The notes: generated by a model not told the origin, from the sequence alone. Shown: positions 148 to 60,499, numbered from the stretch's first letter. The stretch is DNA of 64,000 nt from an uncultured Anaerolineae bacterium (GCA_964413905.1 CAYPUG010000001.1:6962-70961); one strand, 5' to 3'. Numbers and translations are program-made.

Positions 148-1251
148 TTACTCCAACCGCTTCTCCGTCTTCGGGTCGAAGAGGTGCATGTGATCCATAT
201 TCACTACCAAATCCACCAGATCCCCATGGCGGACACGCACACGCGGGTCCACCCGGGCCACAAACGCCTTATTATCCGCGGTCAGACAGTACAGGAAGAT
301 CTCACTTCCCATCAACTCCGTCACATCCACTTTCGCCCGCATCTCGCCCGGGAAAATCTCAGGCGGAACGTACGGCTTCGCGTGGATATCCTCCGGACGA
401 ATACCGAAGATCACCTCCTTACCTTTATACTTACGGTAAATCTCGGCCTTATCCGGGGGCACCAGAAGGCGGAAAGAGCCGCCATCGACGAACAACTTGC
501 CGTCCGCCTCCACCAACGTCGCGTCGAAGAAATTCATGCTCGGGCTGCCGATGAATCCCGCAACGAAGACATTGCCCGGGCGCTCATAAAGGTTCTGCGG
601 CGTATCCACCTGCTGGAGCACACCGTCCCGCATGACCGCGATGCGCGTGGCCATGGTCATGGCCTCGACCTGATCGTGCGTCACATAAATAAACGTGGTT
701 CCCAGGCGCTGATGCAGTTTACTTAACTCCGCGCGGGTCTGGACGCGCAATTTCGCATCCAGGTTGGAGAGAGGCTCATCGAACAAGAAAACCTTGGGCT
801 GGCGCACAATCGCGCGCCCGACCGCCACACGCTGGCGCTGACCACCGGACAATTGCTTAGGCTTCCGGTCCAGCAGCTGCTCAATGCCCAAGATGCGGGC
901 CGCCTCATGCACCCGACGGTCAATCTCGTCCTTGGGAACTTTGCGCAACTTCAAGCCGAAGGCCATATTATCGTACACACTCATGTGAGGGTACAACGCG
1001 TAGGACTGAAACACCATCGCGATGTCCCGATCCTTAGGGGGAACATCGTTGACCAATCGGTCACCGATATAAATGTTTCCTGATGTGAGCTCCTCCAAAC
1101 CGGCCAGAAGACGCAACGTGGTGGTTTTTCCACAACCAGAAGGGCCTACAAAGACAAGGAATTCCTTATCCTCAATGTGAAGAGACAAGTCGTTAACCGC
1201 AATAACGTCTCCAAATCGCTTGGTCACGTGTTCAAAGGTTACACTCGCCAT
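148..1251 (-). CDS. Sugar ABC transporter ATP-binding protein, MalK/UgpC family. True start is at MASVTFEHV, not the upstream ORF extension.
   Basis: Walker A GPSGCGKTT, LSGGQRQR signature, Walker B FLFDEPLSNLD and a C-terminal MalK-type regulatory domain. GAGGGAAAT Shine-Dalgarno precedes the ATG at 1251. Confidence 0.85.
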   Translation of the reverse strand: MASVTFEHVTKRFGDVIAVNDLSLHIEDKEFLVFVGPSGCGKTTTLRLLAGLEELTSGNIYIGDRLVNDVPPKDRDIAMVFQSYALYPHMSVYDNMAFGLKLRKVPKDEIDRRVHEAARILGIEQLLDRKPKQLSGGQRQRVAVGRAIVRQPKVFLFDEPLSNLDAKLRVQTRAELSKLHQRLGTTFIYVTHDQVEAMTMATRIAVMRDGVLQQVDTPQNLYERPGNVFVAGFIGSPSMNFFDATLVEADGKLFVDGGSFRLLVPPDKAEIYRKYKGKEVIFGIRPEDIHAKPYVPPEIFPGEMRAKVDVTELMGSEIFLYCLTADNKAFVARVDPRVRVRHGDLVDLVVNMDHMHLFDPKTEKRLE

Positions 1252-1539
1252 ATTTCCCTCGGGCTCCATTAGGATGAGGTCGGAACGACCGCGGAGACCG
1301 AACTCTTCGGTCATCGGCCGGGCCTGGACGGCATCACCGGAGCGGAGCCAAACCCCGTAAGATGGCCGGCAGGGGATCCGACCGATGGGCATGAGCGCCT
1401 ATACCGTTCCCCGAAGTCATCCCCTTATTCAACAGCAGAATACCAAAGACGACCAACAACACAAGGAGAATGTTGAACACCTAAGTTCTCCGTCGACTTT
1501 CACCCCCTTTCCATGATATAACGTTTGGATGCCTCGCCT

Positions 1540-1662
1540 CTGATCGACTGACACCTTGGCTTTGAAGGAAGAAGGGAAATTCGTGGGCTTTTCGCGGCCT
1601 TCGGCCGCGAAAAGCCCACTCTTTACGCCGAAGTACATGAAACGCGATATGTCAGTCGATCA
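1540..1662. repeat. MITE-like element copy A. Terminal inverted repeats CTGATCGACTGACA / TGTCAGTCGATCA enclose a purine-rich tract, a 37-nt GC-rich hairpin (1583-1619) and TCTTTACG.
   Basis: Perfect 13-14 bp inverted repeats 95 bp apart. Internal sequence is homologous to copies at 14661-14765, 44877-44989 and 7505-7610. Confidence 0.7.
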
Positions 1663-1802
1663 AGTCTGATAAACGAACCACATCCGTACATGCATCTCGG
1701 CTTAAAGATACCGGAAAAACTATAGCACAAAAATCGGCGAAAGGTAAAATCCTCCAATTTTCAGAAAATGGACAGGCATCTGGTGAACCCACAACACGCG
1801 CA

Positions 1803-2819
1803 CTACGCCTCACGCATATGCACATCTACCTGAGGGAATGGAATCTCAATGCCTGCCCGGTCAAATGCCTCTTTAATGCGCCGCCGCATTATGCGCTGGG
1901 CAGTCCACTGTTGGCCGCCCTTCACACGGGCCACCAACCGGAAATTAATGGACGAATCGGCCAACGCTTCCGGCCCTAACGGGATGGGCGGTTCCAAGAA
2001 GATGTTGTCGGGATTCTCCTCGTACAACGTTTTGCCGACCTCGGTCAACACATCGAGGACATGTCCCAGGTCACTATCGTAGGCCACACCTACCTCCGCG
2101 ATCGCTCGGGCCCAATCTCGCGTCTTGTTGGACACGGTGGAAATCTCACTGTTGGGAATAATGTGCAGAATACCGTTGAAATCCCGCACCTTTGTCACCC
2201 GCAAAGTCATCTCTTCCACCACCCCGCTGATCCCCGCAATCTCGACACCGTCCCCTACGTGAAACTGATCCTCCAAGAGAATGAAAATACCCGCGATAAA
2301 ATCTTGTACTAACTTCTGTGCCCCCAGACCAACGGCCAAGCCCACCACGCCGGCGCCGGTGAGCAGCGGGGCAATATTAATGTCGAACACATCGAGCATC
2401 ATCGCAGCCGCACTGAACAAAATCACCACTCGGCCCGTCCAGCGGACAACGTTGCCGATGGTCAACACCCGCCGTTCATCCACCGCTTCATAGCGGGGCC
2501 ACCGGGATTTTAAAACGCTCACGGCCAGTTCAACGGCCTCCCATCCCACGTACGCGAACAACACGATAAGCATCACCCGCACGAATACGTCCTGTACCTC
2601 CCCCGCCGCGAAACCAAACGTGTCGGCCAAAAGTCGGATGAGTACATAACCGATGAGGCCGACCAACACCAACGAACCACCACGGCGCCCCACACGAAAC
2701 ATCCACGTTTCCCCTCTCACTATCCGACGTAAGAGCAGCAACAAGATAATTAAGCCGACAAGAAACACGAGATTCATCTCGTTCAAGACGTTCAAAATGC
2801 GGTTCATCAGCAAATCCAT
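1803..2819 (-). CDS. Mechanosensitive ion channel, MscS family
   Basis: N-terminal TM helices followed by the conserved MscS beta-domain (GAQKLVQDFIAGIFILLEDQFHVGDGVEI ... VRDFNGILHIIPNSEI). GGAGGG Shine-Dalgarno lies before the MDLLMNRIL start. Confidence 0.8.
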   Translation of the reverse strand: MDLLMNRILNVLNEMNLVFLVGLIILLLLLRRIVRGETWMFRVGRRGGSLVLVGLIGYVLIRLLADTFGFAAGEVQDVFVRVMLIVLFAYVGWEAVELAVSVLKSRWPRYEAVDERRVLTIGNVVRWTGRVVILFSAAAMMLDVFDINIAPLLTGAGVVGLAVGLGAQKLVQDFIAGIFILLEDQFHVGDGVEIAGISGVVEEMTLRVTKVRDFNGILHIIPNSEISTVSNKTRDWARAIAEVGVAYDSDLGHVLDVLTEVGKTLYEENPDNIFLEPPIPLGPEALADSSINFRLVARVKGGQQWTAQRIMRRRIKEAFDRAGIEIPFPQVDVHMREA

Positions 2820-2957
2820 AAGCCCTCCCTCGGTGTGTTCGAGGATCAATTTCCCCACAAATTATAACACACTCTTCACGTAACCCTTTTCCCCCATCCT
2901 TCATCCATCTAAATGAAAAAGTTTTTCGATAACGTCGGAGTAGGGTATGCTCACTCC

Positions 2958-3407
2958 ATGAAGGACATACACCTCATCATGCAAGCATTGCGAGAGCGGG
3001 GATACCGCATGACCGCAGCACGGCAGGCCATTCTAAACGTGCTGCTGACCAGTACACGTCCTCTTTCGCCTGCAGAACTTCATCGCAAGGCGAGAGAGGC
3101 ATACCGGGGTGTGGGACTGGTGACGGTCTACCGCACTATTGAAGCCCTGATCGACCTGGGCGTACTCCGCCGCGTTCACCGGGAAGACGGGTGTCACGGA
3201 TATGTGTACGTAGGCTATGGACACCGCCACATCGCGGTGTGTCGCGTGTGCGGGAAAGTACTCATTTTCTCGGGCACCGAAGACGTCTCAGTTCTAGAAG
3301 AAAAGTTGGAGAAAGAAACCGGTTTTCGGGTGGATGATCACTTGCTGCAATTCGTCGGCGTGTGTGCCGAATGCCAGGCTAAGGAAAAGGAGGGTGCCAA
3401 ACCATGA
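2958..3407 (+). CDS. zur: Fur-family metalloregulator, probably Zur given the znuACB genes downstream. The alternative start is 2913.
   Basis: Fur-family DNA-binding helix (RMTAARQAILNVL), HxH and CxxC ... CxxC metal sites. Stop overlaps the znuA start. Confidence 0.7.
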   Translation: MKDIHLIMQALRERGYRMTAARQAILNVLLTSTRPLSPAELHRKAREAYRGVGLVTVYRTIEALIDLGVLRRVHREDGCHGYVYVGYGHRHIAVCRVCGKVLIFSGTEDVSVLEEKLEKETGFRVDDHLLQFVGVCAECQAKEKEGAKP

Positions 3408-4327
3408 ATGGACGAATATCACGAATAATGATTGGGATGCTCATCGTTGCACTTGTGGGAAGCATTGGACTGCTGGCGGCATGCCAATCCCCCCGGCCCG
3501 AATCTCCCACGGGAAAAACGCATGAGGGGCCCCTATTGGTCGTGGTGAGTATCGCTCCGCTGGGGGACTTCGTGCGCCACGTGGGTGGAGATCGCGTACA
3601 CGTTGAGGTGTTAGTACCGCCGGGTGCGAGTCCACACACGTACGAACCTACACCCGGCCAAATGACGCTTCTGCACAAAGCGGACGTTTTAGTGCTCAAC
3701 GGCATCGGACTGGAATTCTGGAAGGACAAAGTACTGAACAGCATCAACAACCCAAAACTGCACGTGGTCGTTGCGGCTGAAGGACTCCACGTGGTGCAGA
3801 CGGGTGAACACGGACAGGGAGGCAATCCCCACGTGTGGCTGGATCCCATCAACGCGGCTCTGGAAGTCGCCCGCATTCGGGACGCGCTTATCAACGTCGA
3901 CCCCGGAGACAAGGATGTGTACCTGAGGAACGGCGCCGGTTACATCGAAGACCTGAAGACCCTGGATCGAGATATTATGCTCACCACCGCGACGTTTCCG
4001 AACAAGAAATTCATCGCCTTTCACCCGGCCTGGGAGTACTTCGCCCGACGCTATGGACTGGTACAAGCCGCGGTCATCGAGCGCACGCCGGGGTCGGAAC
4101 CCTCTCCTGGGGAGATCGCCGATATTGTGAGGACGGTGCAGGAAACCGGAGCCCGGGCGATCATCGCGGAGCCCCAATTTTCCACCAAAGCCGCGGACGC
4201 CATTGCTGCGGAGAGCGGGGCGAAAGTGGTGTTACTCAACCCGTTGGGAGATCCCCCGGATTTCGATTACATCAAGACCATGCGCCGTAACTTAGAACAA
4301 TTGAAGCGTGCTATGGCCGGCAAGTAG
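3404..4327 (+). CDS. znuA: Zinc/metal ABC transporter substrate-binding protein (ZnuA/TroA family)
   Basis: Signal/TM N-terminus and a TroA-like fold with conserved His residues. Lies in an operon with an ABC ATPase and permease. Confidence 0.8.
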   Translation: MNGRISRIMIGMLIVALVGSIGLLAACQSPRPESPTGKTHEGPLLVVVSIAPLGDFVRHVGGDRVHVEVLVPPGASPHTYEPTPGQMTLLHKADVLVLNGIGLEFWKDKVLNSINNPKLHVVVAAEGLHVVQTGEHGQGGNPHVWLDPINAALEVARIRDALINVDPGDKDVYLRNGAGYIEDLKTLDRDIMLTTATFPNKKFIAFHPAWEYFARRYGLVQAAVIERTPGSEPSPGEIADIVRTVQETGARAIIAEPQFSTKAADAIAAESGAKVVLLNPLGDPPDFDYIKTMRRNLEQLKRAMAGK

Positions 4328-4427
4328 GAAATTCACGGGATGATCACGGAGACCGTGATCATCCCGTGAATGACTCCCCTCTTTATGACAAACGCGACCC
4401 AGCAGTCCATCAAAGCGAGGAGGAAGG

Positions 4428-5279
4428 ATGACATTACAACAGGTAAAAACAGCAGCCGTGGTGCCCACGGGCAATGAACCTCCTGTTGTGGAATTGCACG
4501 ATGTTTCGGTGGCATTCGACAGTTTGATCGTGTTGGAGAACGTCAACCTGGAGGTTCGGCCCGGCCAGTTCGTCGCCATCATCGGGCCGAACGGCGCGGG
4601 AAAAACCACGCTGTTACGCGTTATCCTTGGACTTATCCGTCCCCAAAAAGGCACCGTCCGCGTGTTCGGCAGGCCACCGTGGGAAATGGGCGACGCGCGA
4701 CAGCGCATTGGATACGTGCCCCAAGTCCTTACTGTAGATCTGAAATTTCCTGTCACTGCGGGGGAAGTGGTCCTCATGGGCCGCTACGGACGCATCGGAT
4801 TATTCCGACGGCCGTCTAAGGCAGACATCGCTAAAGCCCGAGAGGTCATGGCCCAAGTAGGGGTAGAACACCTTTGGAACAAGCACTTCGGCCACCTTTC
4901 AGGTGGACAACGCCAACGGGTTCTCCTGGCCCGAGCGCTGGTCAACGATCCGGACTTACTCATCCTGGATGAACCGACAACCGGCGTAGACGTCACCGCC
5001 ACAGAAACCGTCTACAGTCTGTTACGCCACTTCCACGACCAAGGCATGACCATCATCGTCGTCTCCCACGATGTGGGGGTCGTTGCCACATTCGTGGACA
5101 CAGTTGCTTGTGTGAACCGCAAACTGATCGCACACGGCCGCCCGGAGGAAGTGCTTGGGTCTGAGGAACTGGCCCAAATGTACGGCTGTGATGTGGCCTT
5201 CTTCCACCATGGCCGCGTGCCTCACATGGTCGTCCAACCGGCACCGGAAGAAATAGAAGAGGAGGAGGTGGACTTCTGA
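4428..5279 (+). CDS. znuC: Zinc/metal ABC transporter ATP-binding protein
   Basis: Walker A GPNGAGKTT, LSGGQRQRV, Walker B ILDEPT. Confidence 0.85.
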   Translation: MTLQQVKTAAVVPTGNEPPVVELHDVSVAFDSLIVLENVNLEVRPGQFVAIIGPNGAGKTTLLRVILGLIRPQKGTVRVFGRPPWEMGDARQRIGYVPQVLTVDLKFPVTAGEVVLMGRYGRIGLFRRPSKADIAKAREVMAQVGVEHLWNKHFGHLSGGQRQRVLLARALVNDPDLLILDEPTTGVDVTATETVYSLLRHFHDQGMTIIVVSHDVGVVATFVDTVACVNRKLIAHGRPEEVLGSEELAQMYGCDVAFFHHGRVPHMVVQPAPEEIEEEEVDF

Positions 5280-6097
5280 TGGAGATACTTACATACACAT
5301 TCATGCAGCGCGCGTTACTTTCCGGAACGCTCATCGGCATCCTCTGCGCAACCGTGGGGGTGTATGTGGTCTTGCGCGGGATGTCCTTTATCGGTGCAGG
5401 AATCGCACACGCGTCCTTTGGCGGTGTGGCGGTGGGTTTTTTCCTGGGGATCAATCCCCTACTGAGCGCGGTAGTCTTTTGTTTGCTCGTCGCGTGGGGC
5501 ATTGCCGGAGTGGCCCGATCTGGACAAGTGAAAGAGGATACCGCGGTAGGTGTATTCTTTGCATCCACCATGGCCTTGGGCATTCTCATCATCGGGCTGA
5601 TGAAAGGCTACAATGTGGAGTTGTTCAGTTACCTGTTCGGCAGCATCCTGGCAGTGACCCCGACAGACGTGTGGTTGACCATTGGAATCAGCGTGGGGGT
5701 GTTGGGTGTAGTGGCCCTGCTCTACAAGGAACTGGAGTTCATTACCTTTGACGCGGAGATGGCTCAGGTGGTGGGATTACCCGTGACCGCGCTCTACTTC
5801 CTGCTCCTGACGTTAATTGCGCTGACCGTCGTCGTTTCCATCAAAGTTGTCGGCATTGTTCTCGTTTCCGCGCTCATTGTGACCCCGGCCGCGGCGGCGT
5901 GGCAACTCACATATCGCTTTCGCGTGATGATGGCGTTGTCCATGATGTTCGGAGCCTTTTCCACCATCGGCGGTCTCCTGCTCTCCTATTGGCTGAACAC
6001 AGCCTCCGGCGCGACGATTGTGTTGATCGCGACAACCCTCTTCTTCCTGGCTTTTCTCTTTTCACCCAAACGGGAACGCCCTTTATGGAGCCAATAA
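5279..6097 (+). CDS. znuB: Zinc/metal ABC transporter permease
   Basis: Polytopic membrane protein of the ABC-3 family. Start overlaps the znuC stop. Confidence 0.8.
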   Translation: MEILTYTFMQRALLSGTLIGILCATVGVYVVLRGMSFIGAGIAHASFGGVAVGFFLGINPLLSAVVFCLLVAWGIAGVARSGQVKEDTAVGVFFASTMALGILIIGLMKGYNVELFSYLFGSILAVTPTDVWLTIGISVGVLGVVALLYKELEFITFDAEMAQVVGLPVTALYFLLLTLIALTVVVSIKVVGIVLVSALIVTPAAAAWQLTYRFRVMMALSMMFGAFSTIGGLLLSYWLNTASGATIVLIATTLFFLAFLFSPKRERPLWSQ

Positions 6098-6172
6098 GCG
6101 AGAATCTCTGATCAATATTTTGGGATGTTCGCCGCCGATGACGACGAACATCCCAAAACCCGACTCTGTCTA

Positions 6173-6700
6173 TCAACCACCACGAATGTCCACTTCAACG
6201 CGCAGGAGCATATCTTCCAGATGGGTGTAAGTGGGCAGATGCGCTTTCTCAAGAATGTCCAAGATGCGAAGATTATCCGGATGGATGTAGGCGTAAAGCC
6301 GCGTGATGCCCAAGCGTCGGGCTCGGGCCACCAGTTCCAACAGCAGTTGAGTCCCGATGCCCCGACACTGATAATCATCCCGCACCACGACCGCCGCCTC
6401 CGCCAGGGGGCCATGATCCTCCCGCACACAGCGGGCACTTCCCACGATCTCATCCTTCACCAGAGCCACCAGGGCCACTTCCCGGTTCGGCATGACCTCC
6501 ACCGTCTCCCCGGCTCGCTCTAACAGGGACCTTCCTTCCACGTTGGGGAGAAACGTGTGGAACCGACGATAGCGGGTTTCGGGAGAGAGGCGCAGGAGAA
6601 AGTCCACCATGCGCTGAGCATCGTCGGGACGGACATCCCGAATGAGTACTTCTTGCCCCTCACGCGTCCAAAACCGCTTGACGTTCTCCTGCGCATCCAT
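6173..6700 (-). CDS. GNAT family N-acetyltransferase. Start is at MDAQENV; the longer upstream ORF extension overlaps the next gene and is rejected.
   Basis: GNAT motif A, QCRGIGTQLL. Confidence 0.7.
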   Translation of the reverse strand: MDAQENVKRFWTREGQEVLIRDVRPDDAQRMVDFLLRLSPETRYRRFHTFLPNVEGRSLLERAGETVEVMPNREVALVALVKDEIVGSARCVREDHGPLAEAAVVVRDDYQCRGIGTQLLLELVARARRLGITRLYAYIHPDNLRILDILEKAHLPTYTHLEDMLLRVEVDIRGG

Positions 6701-7504: not shown

Positions 7505-7610
7505 ACCTGATGGACGGACTCATCATGTTCTATGTCCCTCGGCATATTAAGAACAGAATCAATCCTTCTGCTCGGCCAAGAGACATGCCCAGAGTTTGAT
7601 CCATCCATCA
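7505..7610. repeat. MITE-like element copy F (a hairpin-less variant) in the enoyl-CoA hydratase/queA intergenic region
   Basis: Starts with CTGATGGACGGAC. Internal segments align with copy C (CATGT..CCTCGGC, GGCCAAG, CAGAGTTT). Confidence 0.5.
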
Positions 7611-7622
7611 TCTCGCAAGGAT

Positions 7623-8994: not shown

Positions 8995-11565
8995 CTATCC
9001 TCCGCAATCGGGGGTTATTGTGACCGTCGGGGTCGCCCCCTCCCGAGCAACGATCTTTACCCGCCACGTACACGCACAACTCCCATCCGAACCGGAAATC
9101 CGGGCCCGATACATGCCTTCCAAGCGTACACCTTCCCCCAACAACGCGGAAGGGGGAAGTCCTCGATCCAACCATTGCCATCCCCATCCGGGACTCATAA
9201 CCCAACGAATGGTTTGACCGTACGCCTCTAACAGGGAAGAAGGACGAGTATAGCCCATCGTGCCCCACACCGAAGCGTCTTCCAGGGGAAACGCTTGACC
9301 GCTCCAATGCCATGAACGGGTCTGTTGGCCGCGCTCTGTGTGCCAGGACCAGGTCACCCGTCCTTCCTGCACCACTTTACAGGCAGCCGCATTGCTCCCC
9401 CGTGTCAACGCGGCCACTACGGCCACGTTGGCCCGCACCAACGTATCTTCGGTGAGCACCGCAACGGACGGCCCCAACAATGGAGTGTCCCCCACAGACC
9501 AAGGAAGGGGCAAAGGCGAAGGGCCGGAAGTGAGCACCTGCAGCGAATCGCACCCACACGCGACCTGTTCATTCCAGTGAGAAGTCTCCGTATCGAGCAC
9601 GTACACGGCTTCATCGTACAATCCCGCCGCGTCCCTCACAGTAAGACGCACCACGTACGTACCCGGTGCGTACGTGTGTTGTACGCTTTCCCCCTCTCCC
9701 GTCTGCCCATCCCCAAAATCCCAATGATAGGAGACAATGTCCTCGTCATAATCCATGCTCCCCGAAGCGTTCAACAACACACGACCGTCATCCAGGAACG
9801 AAGCGGTGGCGTACGCGTAGGGAGGATGCTCAAACGTCACCTGGCGGATGACCTGATACAGACGGCCTCGGTGATCCCACATGCGGGCGCGTAGGTGGAC
9901 CTTCTTCAGGGCAGGTACCGGGTTCCACAAAACCTCCCACACCCCATCTTCGACGAGATTCTCCATATCCGAGAGAGTGGCCACAGGTTGCCACCGCCGT
10001 CCGTCCCAATAGGAAAGATCCGCTGCAACCACATCGGTCAGAGACGTCACCACCAACAGAGGGCTTGCCCCGATCACGGGCTTACCCCCTTCCGCACCGG
10101 CCCACGTCAGAGTAATGGTGGGGGTATCCACTCCCTGTTCGGTCGAGAATGCCCCCGAGTGCACGAGCGCCCGGTATCCTAACCAGGGGAAATGAACATC
10201 CGGCGCATACCATCGCAAGGGCAGACGCAACGCCGCAATAGGCCCTTCTCCTTGCGGGTGTGCACTCACAAGCAAGGAGTCCGCCGCGGTCAGTGTGGCC
10301 GTCAACGGCACCTGCAGGGTTACGGTGAGCGTCACGCCCTGTCCCACATCCAGGTTATCCACATGGGTTGGGGACACGTGCACAGAAATCCCTTCAGGCG
10401 CGGTGGCCTGCACCTCGACAGATGCGGGATCAATGCCCCAATTCGTGAGGGAAAGGGTCCAACGGGTGGATGCCCCGCGGCGCAAAGGTTCCCAATAACC
10501 CACACCCAACCGGAGGATAGGGAGTGGACGTGGAGCACCCACATCGAGAGGAGCGTCCACCACATCGGCTAATGTCACACCCTCTGCCAACTCCACCCGG
10601 TCTGGGTTCACCCGCATGTGGGCCATACCGCCGAAAACGATCAACGGAGGGAAGCGAAACCGGATGCCCTGTAAACTCAACGTGGAAACATCTGAACCCA
10701 CAACCCACAGGCCTCGGGATCGGGCCATGACCGCCGCGGTATCGATACCGCTTAAATCCACCACAGAATGCCCATCCACAGCGAAGAAAACACCGTTGCC
10801 CCCTACGCGAGTCCTGTGGCCGGACGCGAGCAAACCCGACGAGGAGCGCAAGATGGTGTCCCCGTACGTCGCCCCCTCCCCCCCTAACACCCGGGAATCG
10901 GACATGATGATGCTATGCCCCCACAGGACCACATCCCCGCCATGTCCCTGGGTGGATGTCCCCCCGCGCACCTCGCCTACTTGCCACACCGCGGCCTTCG
11001 CTGTCAAGAAAACCGCGCCGCCGGGGAAGCCCCGAGTGCCCGCGCCACCGCGTACTGTCCCCCAATTTTCCACCATCCCCTGTAGGGATTCCAAACGCAC
11101 GGAGCCACCGGGCGAACCGGTGCGTCCGCCGTCACCGCCCAAAACAAGCCCTTTATTCACTACACCGGCGGTCACCGACCGAAGTCGCACCCCACCGCCT
11201 GCGTGCGTGTCATCGCCGTACCCGCCTAACACAGCCCCCTCGATGGTAATCGCCTTCTCCGCGAGAATGTCCACATCACAGCCGGAGGCCGCCTGCAAAA
11301 TACCGCGCGAAGCCACAAACAGCGAATCCACGGAGGGCGTCTGCCCTTCCAAGGTAACCACTACATTATCGGGAATAAGCACCGTACTATCAGGCCCCGG
11401 GATGGTCTCTCCCGGCACGGGATCGCCCGTTCTGCCCCACGTGGTGGGATCGTCCCACCGGCCGGAATGGAGGGCTTGAAAGGTTGAGACCGCCGCGACA
11501 GGTTGTGAAGGTGCCAGAACACTTAACAACAGGCCGATCGCGATGACAGCCCAAACATGTCTCAT
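8995..11565 (-). CDS. Secreted multidomain protein with an N-terminal signal peptide, Gly-rich parallel beta-helix-like repeats and a PKD domain
   Basis: Signal peptide MRHVWAVIAIGLLLSVLAPSQPVAA. PKD signature WDFGDGQTGEGESVQHTYAPGTYVVRLTVRD. GGxGxxG repeats. Confidence 0.7.
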   Translation of the reverse strand: MRHVWAVIAIGLLLSVLAPSQPVAAVSTFQALHSGRWDDPTTWGRTGDPVPGETIPGPDSTVLIPDNVVVTLEGQTPSVDSLFVASRGILQAASGCDVDILAEKAITIEGAVLGGYGDDTHAGGGVRLRSVTAGVVNKGLVLGGDGGRTGSPGGSVRLESLQGMVENWGTVRGGAGTRGFPGGAVFLTAKAAVWQVGEVRGGTSTQGHGGDVVLWGHSIIMSDSRVLGGEGATYGDTILRSSSGLLASGHRTRVGGNGVFFAVDGHSVVDLSGIDTAAVMARSRGLWVVGSDVSTLSLQGIRFRFPPLIVFGGMAHMRVNPDRVELAEGVTLADVVDAPLDVGAPRPLPILRLGVGYWEPLRRGASTRWTLSLTNWGIDPASVEVQATAPEGISVHVSPTHVDNLDVGQGVTLTVTLQVPLTATLTAADSLLVSAHPQGEGPIAALRLPLRWYAPDVHFPWLGYRALVHSGAFSTEQGVDTPTITLTWAGAEGGKPVIGASPLLVVTSLTDVVAADLSYWDGRRWQPVATLSDMENLVEDGVWEVLWNPVPALKKVHLRARMWDHRGRLYQVIRQVTFEHPPYAYATASFLDDGRVLLNASGSMDYDEDIVSYHWDFGDGQTGEGESVQHTYAPGTYVVRLTVRDAAGLYDEAVYVLDTETSHWNEQVACGCDSLQVLTSGPSPLPLPWSVGDTPLLGPSVAVLTEDTLVRANVAVVAALTRGSNAAACKVVQEGRVTWSWHTERGQQTRSWHWSGQAFPLEDASVWGTMGYTRPSSLLEAYGQTIRWVMSPGWGWQWLDRGLPPSALLGEGVRLEGMYRARISGSDGSCACTWRVKIVAREGATPTVTITPDCGG

Positions 11566-12647
11566 GTGTACTCCTCCAGTCCGCGCGCTTTGAGTTCGGC
11601 TACGACGTTGCGCACGTCCTGTGCCCGATCACGCGGGCATACGAGGATGGCATCGGCCGTTTCGATGATGACCACATCCGAAAGACCGACCACGGCCACC
11701 AATCTCCCCCCACTCAACACCAGACTGCCCTGTGTATCCAAAAGAAGAACCTGTCCCTCCACCGCGTTGCCTTGTTCGTCCTTCGGGTACTCCTTATACA
11801 CAGCCTCCCAACTGCCCACATCATTCCACCCGATCTCTGCCGGAATCACCGCACCATCGGTAATGTATTCCATAATGCCGAAATCCACCGATTGGGAAGG
11901 CAATGTAGGCCACACCTCGTTCAGAACTCGCGTCTCCTCCGACGTGTCCATAGCCTCCGCGATGCGCATCAGGCCGGCGTACAAATCCGGCATGTGCTGC
12001 CGGATCTCCTCCAAAATGCGATCCACCCGCCAAATGAACATACCACTGTTCCACGAATAACGACCGGTTCGCAAAAATCGCTCCGCGGTAGCCCGGTCGG
12101 GTTTCTCCGTAAACCGAACCAAACGGTACACATCCAGCCCCTCCCACTGCCCAAGGAGATCCCCCCGTTCGATGTATCCGTATCCGGTCGCGGGCTCTGT
12201 GGGCTCGATGCCCAGGGTAACAATCCGCCCCTCCCGAGCCACCGCGGCCGCAGCCCGCAATACCTGTCGAAAGCGGTCCACCCGGGTAATAATGTGATCT
12301 GCGGTCAGTACAGCCATCACCGCGTCCGGGTCCCGTCGTTGCAGAACCACCGCGGCCCAGCCGACAGCAGGCGCGGTGTTCCGACCTTCGGGTTCGCCCA
12401 GGACGTTCTTCGGCGGCAAGGCCGGCAACTGATCGAGAACGCGAGCCACAAACCGACGGTTGGTCACCACGTACACATGGTCGGGAGAGGTTAACTCCAC
12501 CGCGCGCCGGTAAGATTCTTGCAGGAGCGTGTATGGGCTGTTGAAACGCAAGAACTGTTTGGGGTTATCGCCGCGACTTTGCGGCCAAAGGCGGGTACCA
12601 CTTCCTCCGGCCAGGATCACCGGATAAAAGTGCTCGATACGTGCCAT
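11562..12647 (-). CDS. manC: Mannose-1-phosphate guanylyltransferase (GDP-mannose pyrophosphorylase)
   Basis: N-terminal nucleotidyltransferase motif ILAGGSGTRLWP. GGGAGG Shine-Dalgarno before MARIEHF. The 4-bp overlap with the downstream gene (ATGA) suggests translational coupling. Confidence 0.8.
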   Translation of the reverse strand: MARIEHFYPVILAGGSGTRLWPQSRGDNPKQFLRFNSPYTLLQESYRRAVELTSPDHVYVVTNRRFVARVLDQLPALPPKNVLGEPEGRNTAPAVGWAAVVLQRRDPDAVMAVLTADHIITRVDRFRQVLRAAAAVAREGRIVTLGIEPTEPATGYGYIERGDLLGQWEGLDVYRLVRFTEKPDRATAERFLRTGRYSWNSGMFIWRVDRILEEIRQHMPDLYAGLMRIAEAMDTSEETRVLNEVWPTLPSQSVDFGIMEYITDGAVIPAEIGWNDVGSWEAVYKEYPKDEQGNAVEGQVLLLDTQGSLVLSGGRLVAVVGLSDVVIIETADAILVCPRDRAQDVRNVVAELKARGLEEYT

Positions 12648-14544: not shown

Positions 14545-14660
14545 GAGGGTCTTACGATGGCTCAACCGCCGATACAGCGCCTTCGCGTGTTAGAGCATTG
14601 AAAAACTCCGTCGTGCCCCCACGCGCTTGCCTCTCTTCATGCATCTTTGTACAATTTAGT

Positions 14661-14765
14661 CTGATTGACGGACATATCGCGTTTCATGTACCTCGGCGTA
14701 AAGAAGGAGTAGCCTTCCCCTTTCTAGGCCAAGGTGCATTCACAGAGTTTTTGTCAGTCAATCAG
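14661..14765. repeat. MITE-like element copy C (without the central hairpin), lying in the serS upstream region and flanked by the 9-bp direct repeat CAATTTAGT
   Basis: TIRs CTGATTGACGGACA / TGTCAGTCAATCAG. About 45 nt of near-identity to the reverse complement of copy A (GACATATCGCGTTTCATGTACYTCGGCGTAAAGA). Direct repeats at 14652-14660 and 14766-14774. Confidence 0.7.
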
Positions 14766-14867
14766 CAATTTAGTTTACAATAGAAATAGCTCATGAAGGC
14801 ACAGAAGCCAATCCCCCCATCCACGACCGCAACACCGAGGGGAATTTTACCGCGGGGAGGTACACGT

Positions 14868-16148
14868 ATGCTTGACATCACACTGATTCGAGAACACCCA
14901 GAAGTCGTCCGGGAGGGCTTGCGCAAACGACATGAAGACACCGATATTCTCGATCGCGTTCTGGAACTGGATCGCCGACGCCGCTCGCTCCTGCAAGAAG
15001 TAGAACACCTGCGCGCGGAACGGAATCGTGTGTCCAAGGAAATCGGCCGGACCAAGGACAGCGCGGAGCGGGACGCGAAAATCAAGGCCATGCGCGAACT
15101 CAAGACGCGCCTGGAACGCCTGGAGCAAGCACTCCGCGAAGTGGAGACCCAACTTCAGGATGCGCTCTCTCGCATCCCCAACCTCCCCCATGAATCCGTC
15201 CCCGAGGGTGTGGACGATCGGGACAACGTGGTCGTGAGAACATGGGGCGAACCGCGCACCTTTGACTTTACCCCCCTTCCCCACTGGGACTTGGGTCCCA
15301 TGTTAGACATCATTGATTTCGAACGCGCCGCGAAAATCTCCGGCAGTCGATTTTACATCCTCAAAGGTCTGGGCGCACGGTTACAGCGCGCGCTCATCAC
15401 CTGGATGTTGGACGTGCACACTCAAGAGCACGGGTATGTGGAGGTGTATCCTCCCGCGCTGGTGCGCTCACGGGCCCTTTACGGAACAGGAAACCTGCCC
15501 AAGTTCGCGGACGTGCTGTACAAGGACCACGAGGAAGACCTCTGGCTCATCCCCACCGCGGAAGTGCCTGTGACAAACCTGTACGCGGACGAAATTTTGC
15601 CGCCGGGAAGTCTCCCCATCTACCACACCGCGTACACACCCTGTTTCCGGCGGGAGAAAGTCGCGGCCGGCCGCGATGTGCGAGGTATCAAGCGAGTCCA
15701 CCAATTCGACAAGGTGGAATTGGTAAAATTCGTGGAACCAGAACAGGGGTGGGAGGAGTTACAAACCCTGTTGCAAAACGCGGAAGTCCTATTGCAACGG
15801 TTGGACCTGCCCTACCGTGTGGTGTTGCTCAGTACCGGGGACCTGGGCTTCAGCGCGAGCATCACCTATGACCTGGAAGTGTGGGCTCCGGGCAGTCAGG
15901 AATGGTTGGAAGTGTCCTCCTGCAGTTGGTTCACCGACTTCCAAGCACGACGAGCGAACATCCGCTACCGCCCGGCGTCGAACGCGAAACCGCGTTTCGT
16001 GCACACCCTCAACGGATCGGGGTTGGCTCTGCCACGCACCATGATCGCCATCCTGGAAAATTACCAACAACCGGACGGATCCGTGGTCATCCCGGAGGTC
16101 CTCCGTCCGTACATGGGCGTCGACAAGATAGAGAATCCGGGTATGTAG
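14868..16148 (+). CDS. serS: Seryl-tRNA synthetase
   Basis: N-terminal coiled-coil arm plus the class II core. GGAGG Shine-Dalgarno before MLDITLIREHPE. Confidence 0.9.
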   Translation: MLDITLIREHPEVVREGLRKRHEDTDILDRVLELDRRRRSLLQEVEHLRAERNRVSKEIGRTKDSAERDAKIKAMRELKTRLERLEQALREVETQLQDALSRIPNLPHESVPEGVDDRDNVVVRTWGEPRTFDFTPLPHWDLGPMLDIIDFERAAKISGSRFYILKGLGARLQRALITWMLDVHTQEHGYVEVYPPALVRSRALYGTGNLPKFADVLYKDHEEDLWLIPTAEVPVTNLYADEILPPGSLPIYHTAYTPCFRREKVAAGRDVRGIKRVHQFDKVELVKFVEPEQGWEELQTLLQNAEVLLQRLDLPYRVVLLSTGDLGFSASITYDLEVWAPGSQEWLEVSSCSWFTDFQARRANIRYRPASNAKPRFVHTLNGSGLALPRTMIAILENYQQPDGSVVIPEVLRPYMGVDKIENPGM

Positions 16149-22968: not shown

Positions 22969-24230
22969 ACGACGCGTGGATTGCCGCGGGTATCTTTCTC
23001 CTGACGTACGCGATGATCGTGAGCGAACGCGTGCCGCGCACCACCGCCGCCTTGGCCGGTGGCATGTTGATGATCCTCCTGGGCATTCTCCCCCAGGAAG
23101 AAGCGTTTCACGCGGTGGATCTGAACGTACTTTTCCTCCTAACGGGCATGATGGTCATTGCCCACCTGATGGGCGAAACCGGCTTTTTTCAGTGGTTGGC
23201 TGTCCACACGGTCCGCCTGAGCCAAGGCCGCCCCGTCCAGGTCATGGTGTTCATTGCGCTCATTACAGCCTTTGCGTCCGCATTCCTGGACAACGTAACG
23301 GTGGTGGTCCTCATTGCACCGGTAACATTGTACGTCGCCAGCACCTTAGGAGTCAGCCCTGTTCCTTTCCTCATCACGGAGGTGATGGCCTCCAACATCG
23401 GTGGGGCAACGACGCTCATCGGAGACCCACCGAATATTCTTATTGCCAGCCGAGCGAACATTGACTTTCTCCAGTTCCTCCTGAACATGGCACCGCCGGC
23501 TCTCCTCTCCCTGCTCGCTTATGTGGGCATCATGGTCGTCCAATTCCGGCACGCGCTTACCGTACCCGCGGAACGTCGACAGATGCTCATGCGCCTTAAG
23601 ACAGAGGGACTCATCACGAACAGAGCTCTGTTGGTGCAAACTCTCACCGTGCTGGCTGTGGTCATTGTGGGATTTCTCCTTCACGGCGTGCTCCACCTGG
23701 AGCCGGCCACCATTGCCCTTAGCGGCGCGACCTTGCTCCTGCTGTGGACAAAACGGGATCCGCACGCCATCTTTCAACATGTGGAATGGGCTACGTTGAT
23801 GTTCTTTGTAGGACTCTTCATCGCAGTGGAGGGGTTGGTCGCCACGGGGGTGATTGAACGTGTTGCCCACGCGCTGGCGCGCTTAACCTCCAGGAATGTA
23901 CGTATCACCACGTTCTTCATTCTGTGGTTCTCCGCGCTGGCCTCGGGAATCGTGGATAATATCCCCTATACCGCAACCATGCTCCCCATCGTGGAAACAC
24001 TGGGCCGGGTCATGCCTATCCGACCGTTGTGGTGGGCCCTCGCTCTGGGCGCGGATTTGGGGGGAAACTTGACCCTGGTGGGCGCTTCGGCCAATGTGGT
24101 AGTCGCCAGCATTGCTGAACGCAGTGGACACAAGTTAACGTTCGGCGAGTTTTTCCGCTACGGTCTGACAACCGTTACGGTCTCTTTGATTATCTCGTCC
24201 ATCTGGCTGTGGGTCATGTACCTCTCCTGA
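22965..24230 (+). CDS. ArsB/NhaD (CitMHS-type) family permease
   Basis: About 12 TM helices with a duplicated ion-transporter architecture. Confidence 0.7.
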   Translation: MNDAWIAAGIFLLTYAMIVSERVPRTTAALAGGMLMILLGILPQEEAFHAVDLNVLFLLTGMMVIAHLMGETGFFQWLAVHTVRLSQGRPVQVMVFIALITAFASAFLDNVTVVVLIAPVTLYVASTLGVSPVPFLITEVMASNIGGATTLIGDPPNILIASRANIDFLQFLLNMAPPALLSLLAYVGIMVVQFRHALTVPAERRQMLMRLKTEGLITNRALLVQTLTVLAVVIVGFLLHGVLHLEPATIALSGATLLLLWTKRDPHAIFQHVEWATLMFFVGLFIAVEGLVATGVIERVAHALARLTSRNVRITTFFILWFSALASGIVDNIPYTATMLPIVETLGRVMPIRPLWWALALGADLGGNLTLVGASANVVVASIAERSGHKLTFGEFFRYGLTTVTVSLIISSIWLWVMYLS

Positions 24231-24263
24231 TAGAACGATAAAACTCTGTGTACATACCGTGGC

Positions 24264-24896
24264 TTAAAGAGAAAGAAACGGATTCAAGCGACGTTCGGTA
24301 CCCACGGTGGTAAACTCGCCGTGACCGGGCAGGAGTTGATAATCATCGGGCAGCGCGAGGATAACGCGACGGATGCTCTCCATAAGGGTCGAGAAATCAC
24401 CTCCGGGAATATCCGTCCGGCCAATGCTGCCCGCGAAAATAACATCGCCCACAAAGGCCCGACGGTGGATGTGGTCTATGAGCGTGACCGATCCCGGGGA
24501 ATGACCCGGCGTGTGTGCGATCTCCAACGCGACCCCACACACGGGAAAAGGCATCCCCGGCTCCAGGTGAGCGTCCACCTTGGGCATGGGGCCGGGATCA
24601 AACCCCAACCATGAACGGGTAATCTCCCGCTGAACGGCCAATACCGGCTCATCGTCCGGATGCAGGTAAAAGGGAACGGGCCGCTCTTGCCGTAACGCGT
24701 CCACCGCTAACACATGGTCAAAATGGGCATGAGTGGCAATAATCGCTTGCAACCGCCACCCGTGCCGCCGTAAAACCGCTTGAATGGCCGTTGGATGGCC
24801 ACCGGGATCAATGACCACGGCCTCGTTCGTGTCCTCACAGCCGAGAACAAAACAATTAACTTGCAAGGGACCCACCACCACGTGTTCCAAAACCAT
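24264..24896 (-). CDS. MBL-fold metallo-hydrolase (glyoxalase II-like)
   Basis: HAHFDH zinc-binding motif. Confidence 0.8.
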   Translation of the reverse strand: MVLEHVVVGPLQVNCFVLGCEDTNEAVVIDPGGHPTAIQAVLRRHGWRLQAIIATHAHFDHVLAVDALRQERPVPFYLHPDDEPVLAVQREITRSWLGFDPGPMPKVDAHLEPGMPFPVCGVALEIAHTPGHSPGSVTLIDHIHRRAFVGDVIFAGSIGRTDIPGGDFSTLMESIRRVILALPDDYQLLPGHGEFTTVGTERRLNPFLSL

Positions 24897-29236: not shown

Positions 29237-29986
29237 CTATGGTCTCACCCGTACCCATATCCAAAGGATAATACGTTTCAGCACTTCGTATCCGATCCAC
29301 ACCAAATACGCCCACAACGCGTATCGGGCACCGCGCAAAGCAGCCTTCCGAATCCGCTGACTGTTGAAAATCTGCCCAAATTGGCTGAAAATACCCCGCC
29401 CGGTTCCCTGATGTTGACCGGCCACTACCGTCGCCGTAGGTGTAGGCGAAGGGATAGGGGTAGGCGTAGGTATTTCGGGCAGGACCACCACGGCCGGTGT
29501 CGGGGTGGGTGCGGGGGTCGGAGTAAAGCGCGGTGTCGGGGTAACCGTCGGCGTGGGTGTGGGCGTAGGCCTGGTGTTTGCCACGTCCACACGCACAATG
29601 GGCGATTCGATGTAGTTGCCGTCGATTTTGACCACGCGGAGTTTCAGCGCGTAAGGACCATCCGGCAGGGGGCGCGTGTCCCACAAGCCTAACAGACCGT
29701 TGGGTTGTTGGTTGTAATGCGCTTCACCGATGAAAATCCACCCCTGATCCCCAGAAGGCGGTGGCCAGGGCGCATAATACAACTCGTACCTTTGGAATTG
29801 GGGATGAACGGCGACGCCGGAAATGCGCACTTCTCCGCGCACCACGTCACCGTTTTTGGGTATGGTAATCAACGCCTCTGCGCCTTGAGCGTGCACACCC
29901 GTACCGATAATTCCCCACGCTATGAACAAAGATACGAGCAAGATGGCCGCGAGCGACATCCATCCTCGTCGTGAATACATGTACAT
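29237..29986 (-). CDS. Secreted protein: signal peptide, a beta-sandwich domain, a Pro/Thr-rich linker and a C-terminal hydrophobic anchor
   Basis: Signal peptide LAAILLVSLFIAWGIIGTGVHA. (PT)n linker. GGAGAGG Shine-Dalgarno. Confidence 0.6.
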   Translation of the reverse strand: MYMYSRRGWMSLAAILLVSLFIAWGIIGTGVHAQGAEALITIPKNGDVVRGEVRISGVAVHPQFQRYELYYAPWPPPSGDQGWIFIGEAHYNQQPNGLLGLWDTRPLPDGPYALKLRVVKIDGNYIESPIVRVDVANTRPTPTPTPTVTPTPRFTPTPAPTPTPAVVVLPEIPTPTPIPSPTPTATVVAGQHQGTGRGIFSQFGQIFNSQRIRKAALRGARYALWAYLVWIGYEVLKRIILWIWVRVRP

Positions 29987-31903: not shown

Positions 31904-32345
31904 GATGTTGTTACCCATGCCCTGGCCTCATCTTTTTTCCTGATGGACGGACAAAACGTCACGGATGCTATCGAAGCGGCGAGAGGTCGTCGCACTCCAA
32001 AAACTTTCCCAGGTACTCCTATGAAACAAGTACAATCTCGAGAATTTCCTAAAATCCCTTCCCAAAATCGGCGAAAGAAGTGTTCACTATTTTACCGCAC
32101 ATAAAGGACAGGGTGAAATGCACCGCGTCCTGTTCCGGGGCTTTCCAACAGTCTGATACGTGAAGATATTGTATCGGCCATTGAGTCGTTGCATGTCCTT
32201 TTTAGAAGGCTCTTGATAAGCGAAGGCAATGCCTCCACCTCCCCCCTGTGTGTTGAAAAAAGACTGGATTGTGTCCTTGCCGGGCTTGAAGTTCTTATTG
32301 AGTCGTGTTACACTGTGTTGTGGTAAGGAGGAGAAAAATCCGAGC

Positions 32346-40174: not shown

Positions 40175-40303
40175 GATAGAAGGCCGAAGGGACACCCCGG
40201 TCGACCGACACGACGCCACGGATGCATGTTGGCTTAAAACGACATGCATCGGTCCATCAGAAGAACTTTTTACGTTGAGGTCCATGTGAAGGAGGCAACA
40301 GGT

Positions 40304-44433: not shown

Positions 44434-44823
44434 ATGTACGACCTCTACGCAGAAGAAATCCTAGACCATTACAAATTTCCCCGCAACAAGGGGAAAATGG
44501 ATAACCCCGACCTGGTGTACCACGATGAAAACCCCGTATGCGGGGACGAAATCACCATCATGCTCAAAGTGGAAGACGGTCGGGTCGTCGATGTGAAGTG
44601 GGAAGGCCGGGGCTGCACCATCAGTCAGGCATCCGCTTCTATGCTCTCGGAAGAGGTAAAAGGGAAAACCTTGGAAGAACTACGCCACTGGGGCAAGGAA
44701 GAGGTGCTGGACCTGTTGGGGATTCCCCTCGGCCCTGTACGTTTAAAATGTGCGCTTTTGCCGCTCAAAGCCCTGAAGGCCGCGGCTTGGGGTATCACAT
44801 CCTGGCCGGATGAGGAGGAATGA
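44434..44823 (+). CDS. sufU: SufU/IscU-like sulfur-transfer scaffold protein
   Basis: NPVCGDEITI ... GRGCTISQAS ... CALLP motifs. Confidence 0.85.
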   Translation: MYDLYAEEILDHYKFPRNKGKMDNPDLVYHDENPVCGDEITIMLKVEDGRVVDVKWEGRGCTISQASASMLSEEVKGKTLEELRHWGKEEVLDLLGIPLGPVRLKCALLPLKALKAAAWGITSWPDEEE

Positions 44824-44827
44824 GTTT

Positions 44828-44862
44828 CGTGGGATGTTCGCTAAAGGCGGAAACATCCCACG
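44828..44862 (+). terminator. GC-rich hairpin (copy B1 of the GTGGG...CCCAC hairpin family) 5 nt after the sufU stop, followed by a U/C-rich tract. Probable intrinsic terminator.
   Basis: CGTGGGATGTTCGC-taaag-GCGGAAACATCCCACG, then ACCTTTCTCCTCCTCTT. Confidence 0.5.
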
Positions 44863-44876
44863 ACCTTTCTCCTCCT

Positions 44877-44989
44877 CTTGATATATCGCCCAGGCTTAAA
44901 AGGAGAAGAGGGTGTGATTTTCGCCGCCTTCGGCGGTGAAAATCACACAAATCTCTACTCTTTCTTTACGTGATATATCAATCCATCAG
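44877..44989. repeat. MITE-like element copy B, with the central hairpin at 44912-44948
   Basis: The left arm CCTCCTCTTGATATATCG ... AAAAGGAGAAGAGGG and the right arm TCTTTACGTGATATATCAATCCATCAG are collinear with copy A. The hairpin GTGTGATTTTCGCCGCC-TTC-GGCGGTGAAAATCACAC shows compensatory changes relative to copy A. Confidence 0.65.
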
Positions 44990-60153: not shown

Positions 60154-60499
60154 AAAAACTGCCCCCTCCTTTGAGTGGTCAACCTGATCGACCGATAGCC
60201 CTCCGCATGTGCACTTTGGCTTAAAAGAGCGATGTCGCAATGCCTTCGTCTACCCGTTGAAGTTCGGCCGGTCAATCAGGCATGTTCTTTTTGGTCTATA
60301 CGTGGGAGATATTTTACCATAAGGCGCAAAGAATCATAATCGAACCGGCCCGCACGCCGGGTTTTCCATATGCACAGGTTTGATGGACCGATAACACATC
60401 ATCCGAGATGGAGGAAATGCGTGAGATTTTTACCACTCTCGGTGGCGTAAATCCCGCTCGTATATCTACTAATGAACACGTATTCGCACGGGGGCAAAC

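Follow-up and report, generated by a model that had tools for sequence, protein, structure and literature searches.

The Correia elements (CREE) of Neisseria are abundant intergenic MITEs, small non-coding transposons whose terminal repeats fold the whole transcribed element into a long hairpin. Their target is TA. The long form of 153-157 bp carries a central IHF site that has been proposed to aid synapsis of the ends, and the short form measures about 105 bp (PMC2649163). A resident DDE transposase acts in trans to move MITEs of the MITEAba12 type, and MITEAba12 and ISAba12 make a 9-bp duplication (PMC6382973). REP sequences are 20-40 nt long, have a GTAG or CGTC head, and are devoid of TIRs and target duplications (PMC3733652). 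Furthermore, template switching at inverted repeats has been documented to invert the spacer, homogenise the arms and expand them (PMC8794818, PMC8604942), and the same three outcomes are described in another report (PMC13100816). Such switching has been proposed to give rise, in the absence of selection, to perfect stems and to compensatory changes of several bases, and to maintain them (PMC8794818; PMC8604942).

In this study, we analysed a window of 64 kb, a single stretch of DNA from an uncultured Anaerolineae bacterium, in which the original prediction had described a hairpin at 1583-1619 that recurs with paired base changes. We consider it probable that this hairpin forms the palindromic centre of a MITE, a small transposon with no coding sequence, which has spread through an uncultured Chloroflexota genome; this judgement covers the whole explanation, that is, the MITE identity together with an account of the paired changes by re-templating of the arms on each other. 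The family is previously undescribed, of a known kind, and belongs to an uncultured Chloroflexota lineage. About nine intergenic repeats of the window, insertions in the suf and znu operons included, would accordingly be transposon sequence and not a regulatory RNA family.

In its organisation, the element has its closest analogue in the Correia element. Both are abundant in intergenic regions, both have terminal repeats that fold the whole transcribed element into a long hairpin, and here also a long form of 154 bp occurs beside a short form of about 105 bp that is devoid of a central block of about 50 bp. In contrast, the two have no sequence similarity, the central block here is a perfect palindrome in place of the IHF site, the host belongs to the phylum Chloroflexota, and the target duplication is 9 bp. 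MITEAba12 is likewise non-coding, about 110-150 bp long, bounded by TIRs and 9-bp duplications, and patchily distributed in a strain-specific manner. It differs in its richness in AT, in its weak folding (-24 to -27 kcal/mol) and in its known descent from ISAba12; the element described here is palindromic over nearly its whole length, and its core is perfect. The start of the TIR, CTGAT, and the 9-bp duplication presumably resemble those of IS10/IS50-type IS4 elements. REP/BIME sequences, which are associated with RAYT transposases, are also short palindromic intergenic repeats in many copies. Unlike these, the Chloroflexota element has TIRs and a 9-bp duplication and shows no GTAG or CGTC head at the hairpin, and its identification as a REP/RAYT palindrome was therefore rejected.

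Structure of the element and its copies in the window

In contigs of the metagenome Ga0256833, the intact element was exactly 154 nt long in 12 copies, and a 13th hairpin-bearing copy had a truncated right end. The 12 intact copies and the hairpin-less copies alike had TIRs of about 14 bp (CTGATTGACTGACA / TGTCAGTCAATCAG) at either end. Conservation of the left TIR reached up to 18 nt, the end reading CTGATTGACTGACA(AAAC) and the right end being its inverted complement. A 9-bp target-site duplication, different in sequence at each locus, was observed at 12 of the 13 hairpin-bearing copies and at two hairpin-less copies. The centre of the element is a 51-nt perfect palindrome, GAAATTCGTGGGATTTTCGCCGCC-TTC/GAA-GGCGGCGAAAATCCCACGAATTTC, with a 24-bp stem, a 3-nt loop and a predicted folding energy of about -50 kcal/mol. 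Between the TIRs and the palindrome lie asymmetric arms that are imperfectly complementary, and whole elements fold as a single long stem-loop (z of -5 to -8.5). The copies range from 104 to 154 nt and are non-coding; the 64-kb window contains about nine copies or remnants, and the contigs of the same metagenome contain at least 20. The features by which a MITE is recognised were found, namely TIRs, a target-site duplication of fixed length, small size, no coding sequence, multiple copies and empty sites. The exception is an autonomous partner: the window and about 77 kb of contigs from the same metagenome yielded no transposase gene enclosed by a matching pair of TIRs.

Solitary TIR-like sites with no recognisable partner end were seen at 31940-31957 of the window (e.g. 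CTGATGGACGGACAAAAC) and at 2834 of L020 and 2428 of L054, two other contigs. Such sites may be remnants; alternatively, they may terminate a longer element that is possibly autonomous.

The copies in the window were located with a profile of the element. Copy A (1540-1663, plus strand) is an old, hairpin-bearing copy of 124 nt with the TIRs CTGATCGACTGACA / TGTCAGTCGATCA; 16 nt are missing from its left arm and 14 nt from the part right of the hairpin, and no target duplication was recognisable. Its core palindrome, hairpin A (1583-1619), reads GTGGGCTTTTCGCGGCC-TTC-GGCCGCGAAAAGCCCAC and forms a perfect stem of 17 Watson-Crick pairs, exactly as originally described. As RNA, it was predicted to fold with -36 kcal/mol on either strand (z = -7.1), and none of 200 shuffled sequences folded as well. 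Copy B (44878-44988, plus strand) is diverged and internally deleted, and its right end (...GATATATCAATCCATCAG) matches the right TIR of the family. Both A and B are old, internally deleted insertions. Hairpin B within the latter (44912-44948), GTGTGATTTTCGCCGCC-TTC-GGCGGTGAAAATCACAC, has 16 Watson-Crick pairs and one G·U on the plus strand (z = -8.4). Between A and B we observed three differences in the left arm, each compensated on the right arm, plus one change from G-C to G·U; the claim that the hairpin recurs in copy B with paired changes was thus borne out.

Next to copy B, a remnant at 44799-44881 (plus strand), corresponding to model positions 30-116, adjoins the sufU stop codon and contains the third hairpin (44828-44862). 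As had been predicted, this hairpin begins just past the stop codon of sufU (NifU_N/SufU; stop at 44821-44823), the gap being 4-5 nt. Its outer stem, CGTGGGAT/ATCCCACG, equals the family consensus, and its apex is shortened. The match at the left edge of the remnant is weak and overlaps native sufU codons. A MITE origin of the sufU C-terminus or stop codon was rejected, the WPDEEE tail being common to homologues.

Two further remnants lie in the znu region. That in the znuA-znuC spacer (4327-4412, plus strand) ends on the right in CAGTCCATCA and has a strongly diverged hairpin at 4331-4371, ATTCACGGGATGATCACGG-AGA-..., with a perfect 19-bp stem in which about half of the positions equal the consensus. 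The other (6108-6176, plus strand) is internally deleted and lies between the convergent znuB and acetyltransferase genes; its hairpin (6120-6156), TTGGGATGTTCGCCGCC-GAT-GACGACGAACATCCCAA, forms 15 Watson-Crick pairs and two A·C/G·T oppositions. Although it is seemingly solitary, this hairpin is still bounded by the TIR-like ends CTGATCAAT and GTCTATCA. In addition, the left half of a decayed copy was found between convergent genes (24227-24313, plus strand), and a degenerate hairpin-bearing copy (60381-60470, plus strand) has the left TIR-like end TGATGGACCGATAAC and a weakened hairpin at about 60420-60460 (-16 kcal/mol).

The statement that some copies of the element are hairpin-less was confirmed at two places. 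The copy at 7507-7612 (minus strand) belongs to a subfamily with TIRs of the CTGATGGAC type. The copy at 14661-14765 (minus strand) is young, comprises 105 nt corresponding to model positions 1-52 and 103-154, and retains an intact 9-bp duplication, CAATTTAGT, at 14652-14660 and 14766-14774.

Other repeats were also noticed in the window. A second pair of related intergenic repeats (40190-40270 and 60177-60275), with the ends CCGGTCGACCGACA / CTGATCGACCGATA and the motif TTGGCTTAAAA, did not match the 154-nt model and may represent a further subfamily of MITEs. G-rich repeats with an 18-nt period (GGTGTCGGGGT...) at 29496-29560, 54509-54756 and 56253-56317 lie inside long minus-strand ORFs and are probably repetitive linker-coding sequence of large secreted or glycoside-hydrolase-like proteins.

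Copies outside the window and empty sites

Reference genomes of 185,579 species, one genome each, were scanned with the pattern GTGNGNTTTTCNC-N11-GNGAAAANCNCAC, the source species being absent from this collection. The scan returned no member of the family; its seven hits were unrelated palindromes of other phyla. Viral contigs gave no family match. When JGI metagenome contigs were searched for TTTTCGCNNCCTTCGGNNGNGAAAA, 41 loci were obtained, of which about two were estimated to occur by chance. As many as 19 of the 41 came from one metagenome, Ga0256833, in which young copies are located on 18 contigs besides the one identical to part of the window. The search pattern fixes 20 of the 25 central bases, and conservation of the inner stem among the young copies is accordingly in part an effect of ascertainment. 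The possibility, raised with the original prediction, that only three copies exist does not hold, since further copies were found in the window and on the Ga0256833 contigs.

Among the Ga0256833 contigs, L056 matches positions 1077-5779 of the window with 99.98% identity, and a gene on another, L054, is also present in the MAG and the ENA sample of the window. The Ga0256833 contigs therefore sample the organism or population from which the window derives. Contigs of the MAG GCA_054022975.1, of ENA and of Logan are 99.9% identical to the window, and each of these assemblies encodes one window protein without any difference. Those SufU homologues that bear a taxon name are assigned to Chloroflexi or Chloroflexota, which places the source in this phylum. 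A young 154-nt MITE at 3584-3737 of L054, the same as 11104-11257 of L067, is nested within an older family member, in its right end (flank at 11076-11102 of L067), with the target duplication AACGGACAC inside ...GATGTGTCCGTT. The NCBI and Logan contigs of this locus break within the MITE, as repeats would.

Six orthologous spacers of related Chloroflexota were devoid of the element, with gene order kept. The spacer between sufU and the FeS-assembly gene measures 208 nt here versus 29-34 nt in the relatives; that of znuA-znuC, 100 nt versus 33 and 2 nt; that of znuB and the acetyltransferase gene, 75 nt versus 0 nt; that of ECH-queA, 141 nt versus 22 nt; and that of the M23 peptidase gene and apbA, 263 nt versus 54-111 nt. 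In the ABC-mscS spacer, where copy A lies in the window, a relative showed no match to the element. The relatives compared in the znu region have ZnuC proteins 89% and 77% identical to that of the window.

An nhmmer search over about 150 kb of related Chloroflexota detected a single homologous element, at 8130-8240 of L011, a contig of a related species. At 10432-11713 of the same contig, the spacer between sufU and the FeS-assembly gene contains inserted genes for a PhdYeFM antitoxin-like protein, a Rieske protein and a nucleotidyltransferase; in this lineage, the spacer has thus received insertions more than once. Perfect palindromes with stems of 21 bp and 19 bp were also observed near the suf regulator of L011 (3242-3286) and in the sufC-sufB spacer of L012 (5860-5900), respectively. 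The motif TTCCGAA is common to both, and these palindromes could be an operator or another palindromic repeat. In a different metagenome, Ga0099364 (L035, L044, L045, L046, L048 and L055), an unrelated repeat family contains TTTTCGCGGCCTTCGGCCGCGAAAA, exactly the core of 25 nt in hairpin A; its flanks there are CCCCGTC / TCCACCCC, after which come CCCCTCCC-N4-GGAGGGGAATTT hairpins. Either the two families converged on a hairpin of very high stability, or they have a module in common.

Paired changes of the arms and inversion of the loop

Subsequently, covariation was examined with 14 distinct hairpin variants aligned on the 24-pair helix. Paired cells amounted to 89.5%, versus 38-50% when the partner was slid by 1-3 columns. 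Changes on both sides were present in 12 of the 24 stem pairs (20 cells), and none of 500 shuffles reached the observed values of pairing or covariation. Compensated changes include GTGGAA/TTCCAC in L037; GTGCGA/TCGCAC and GAAATTT/AAATTTC in L027; GGGC/GCCC and CGCGGCC/GGCCGCG in window copy A; GTGTGA/TCACAC in window copy B; and TGTT/AACA in the third hairpin, the hairpin at 6120-6156 and L032b. Old copies kept 15-19 of 17-19 pairs, while their flanks were only 78-89% identical to the consensus. In the copy of the related species (L011), the inner stem is changed at 8 of 17 positions, all of them compensated, and the geometry of 24 bp plus 3 nt is the same. Its perfect symmetry reaches 34 bp and so extends into arms that are imperfect in the consensus, and its inner stem has diverged more than its flanks (47% versus 18%); the stem and flank values of L011 and L032b were taken by direct reading of the sequences. 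That the arms co-vary and that pairing is kept even in strongly diverged copies is thus supported by both the alignment and the old copies.

The copies were then oriented by their flanks, which are asymmetric about the palindrome; read in the host frame, the loop was GAA in six copies and TTC in 14. Among the 12 full-length copies, six variable flank sites showed all four combinations with the state of the loop. The 3-nt loop has therefore been inverted more than once, which is not explicable by point mutation. Independent assemblies agreed base for base on all window copies and on the loop of one young copy, so that assembly error is an unlikely source of the flips in the copies checked. The loop orientation of the other young copies was read from single metagenome assemblies, in which repeat assembly can mix variants and inflate the four-combination signal.

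Substitution rates were compared between the palindrome and its flanks. Private substitutions were found at 1.28% in the outer stem, which is unconstrained by the search pattern, and at 1.86% in the flanks, a difference that was not significant; these similar rates argue against strong purifying selection after insertion. Variants common to several copies occupied no cells in the stem versus 39 in the flanks (P = 0.002). The rate of the stem is thus significantly lower only when shared variants are counted, and the comparison was therefore not counted as evidence of selection at the level of the host. We also compared the strands of transition mismatches in co-directional copies: G·U lay on the transcribed strand in one case (copy B) and A·C in two (L032b and L037), a comparison of few cases.

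The original prediction took the covariation as an argument for selection on the structure itself. This does not follow, because template switching within a palindrome gives symmetric arm changes without selection, and both the loop found either way round and the six four-combination flank sites point to it. Judging from the sequences, the paired changes can arise by DNA copying between the arms, and so do not prove a selected RNA or terminator function. It had also been considered that simple palindrome symmetry, and not selection on pairing, might explain the differences, and template switching amounts essentially to that. The switching is inferred from its footprints, which match those known from quasipalindromes: arm homogenisation, multi-base "compensatory" changes, expansion of the perfect arms, and inversion of the spacer or loop (PMC8794818, PMC8604942). 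The known cases, in contrast, are rRNA and microRNA hairpins and inverted repeats of yeast and E. coli, whereas here the footprints lie in dispersed copies of a transposon. Neutral template switching alone may perhaps be insufficient for pairing in every old copy, and some selection on structure, at the DNA or RNA level, may act as well. The family is a cautionary case, in that significant covariation can stem from a palindromic mobile element, with flipped loops betraying arms that were re-templated. Dozens of dispersed, datable copies of the palindrome also represent natural replicates for comparing rates of template switching and loop inversion with that of point mutation.

Origin and possible roles of the palindrome

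In the history that we propose, a DDE-type transposase encoded elsewhere, for which the 9-bp duplication suggests an IS4- or IS5/IS903-like type, presumably mobilises the 154-bp element and makes the 9-bp target duplications, and the element would in this way have colonised intergenic spacers of the uncultured Chloroflexota genome. During replication, the palindrome would be re-templated repeatedly on itself by intramolecular template switching at the hairpin. One arm would thereby be copied from the other, by which a single mutation is either erased or turned into a "compensated" pair, and the loop would sometimes be inverted. Those lineages that keep transposing seem to be under an additional constraint. 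The hairpin is invariant in the source lineages and the geometry of 24 bp plus 3 nt recurs in a related species; hence, the palindrome may help the element, possibly as a cruciform or bend that joins the two ends of a very short transposon. It is nevertheless dispensable for transposition, because hairpin-less copies moved too.

The hairpin-less copies and the gene contexts bear on two alternatives. Two of these copies, at 14661-14765 of the window and 2530-2633 of L021, miss exactly model positions 53-102, as would be expected if the palindrome of 50-51 nt were a separate mobile module that lands repeatedly, either way round, in the apex of a 104-nt MITE. The loop occurring both ways round relative to the flanks, and the identical 25-nt core in the unrelated repeats of another metagenome, are also consistent with such a module, akin to the independent insertion that was first suggested. 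A third hairpin-less copy, however, at 1888-1989 of L032, has other deletion end points, and the hairpin form is old, since a related species has a hairpin-bearing copy of the same geometry (L011). Deletion is thus likelier than repeated insertion of a module. Apart from the precise 50-nt block, the hairpin-less copies fall within the sequence diversity of the hairpin-bearing ones, and those of 104-105 bp seem to have arisen by deletion and to have gone on transposing. Moreover, the palindrome always occupies one position of the MITE and has no target duplication of its own, flank haplotypes are common to TTC and GAA copies, and the reference genomes and viral contigs yielded no family member. 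In the window and the Ga0256833 contigs, every copy of the hairpin was inside a MITE or a recognisable remnant, which speaks equally against an autonomous structural motif. We therefore regard a separately mobile palindrome as highly improbable. Somewhat less improbable, and still quite unlikely, is that the hairpin is an RNA cis element under selection by the host, such as an intrinsic or bidirectional terminator, a stabiliser of mRNA 3' ends or an RNase III site, with the MITE merely as its vehicle. The stem-loops predicted on both strands are very stable (-36 to -50 kcal/mol), many copies lie directly past stop codons or between co-directional or convergent genes, diverged copies retain pairing, the single unpaired change of copy B is a G·U on the transcribed strand, and the transcribed Correia hairpins of Neisseria can be substrates of RNase III (PMC2649163). 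Like intrinsic terminators, the hairpins are GC-rich, very stable and intergenic, often just past a stop codon. Unlike them, they have no T-tract after the stem, the tails being GAATTTCTACTCC or TCTTTACGCC; their stems of 17-24 bp are far longer than typical, and they are embedded in repeats bounded by TIRs and target duplications. The terminator scan flagged none of the hairpins, and terminator-like sites were not enriched in the genome. By rough ORF calls, about 14 copies lie between co-directional genes, about four between convergent genes and about five between divergent genes, that is, in promoter regions. The suggestion of a terminator is consequently weak, and a terminator as a general explanation was rejected. 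Elements and loops occur in both orientations, A·C and not G·U lies on the transcribed strand in two of the three co-directional mismatch cases, private mutation of the outer stem is not below that of the flanks, and the faster inner stem of L011 is the opposite of classical compensatory evolution. The comparison with Rfam that had been recommended returned nothing meaningful: there were no hits at gathering thresholds in the whole window, and permissive E-values with a consensus-like copy gave only sub-threshold eukaryotic microRNA-precursor models and other unrelated models.

A further alternative is that the palindrome acts as a DNA-level site, whose cruciform or protein-bound bend would favour synapsis of the two ends, and that selection for transposition keeps its symmetry. 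In accordance with this, the hairpin is invariant in the source lineages of young copies while the flanks hold the shared variants (0 versus 39 cells), L011 keeps the 24-bp-plus-3-nt geometry despite differences at 8 of 17 core positions, and in Correia elements a central IHF site proposed for end synapsis is present in the long form and absent from the short one (PMC2649163). On the other hand, hairpin-less copies with identical deletion ends occur at two loci, each with its own 9-bp duplication, and so moved without a hairpin; the invariance of the inner stem is, moreover, partly due to ascertainment by the search. Such a site is rather unlikely in our view. A broader possibility, to which we likewise give a small probability, is that the palindrome serves as an organ of the transposon, either as a self-maintaining cruciform whose bending brings about synapsis or as a target of the transposase or of a host protein, or else that copies were co-opted by the host as sites of RNA processing or stability in suf and znu. 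As an organ, it would have its symmetry renewed by template switching, and the geometry of 24 bp plus 3 nt would persist from species to species while the sequence turns over. Since the 154-bp and 104-105-bp forms closely parallel those of Correia elements, one may ask whether very short transposons have repeatedly arrived at a bending or cruciform module in their centre.

Returning to the explanation that we prefer, a MITE whose arms are re-templated on each other, any influence that a very stable stem-loop has on host genes by way of read-through transcripts would be incidental; such an effect is possible by analogy with Correia elements (PMC2649163). No tRNA genes were detected in the window. 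The young hairpin-less copy at 14661-14765 ends 27 nt upstream of serS (seryl-tRNA synthetase, 14793-16148), where no T-box or other Rfam leader was found. Immediately ahead of the MITE is a TACAAT-like -10 box. This insertion may part the gene from its promoter or provide a new one.
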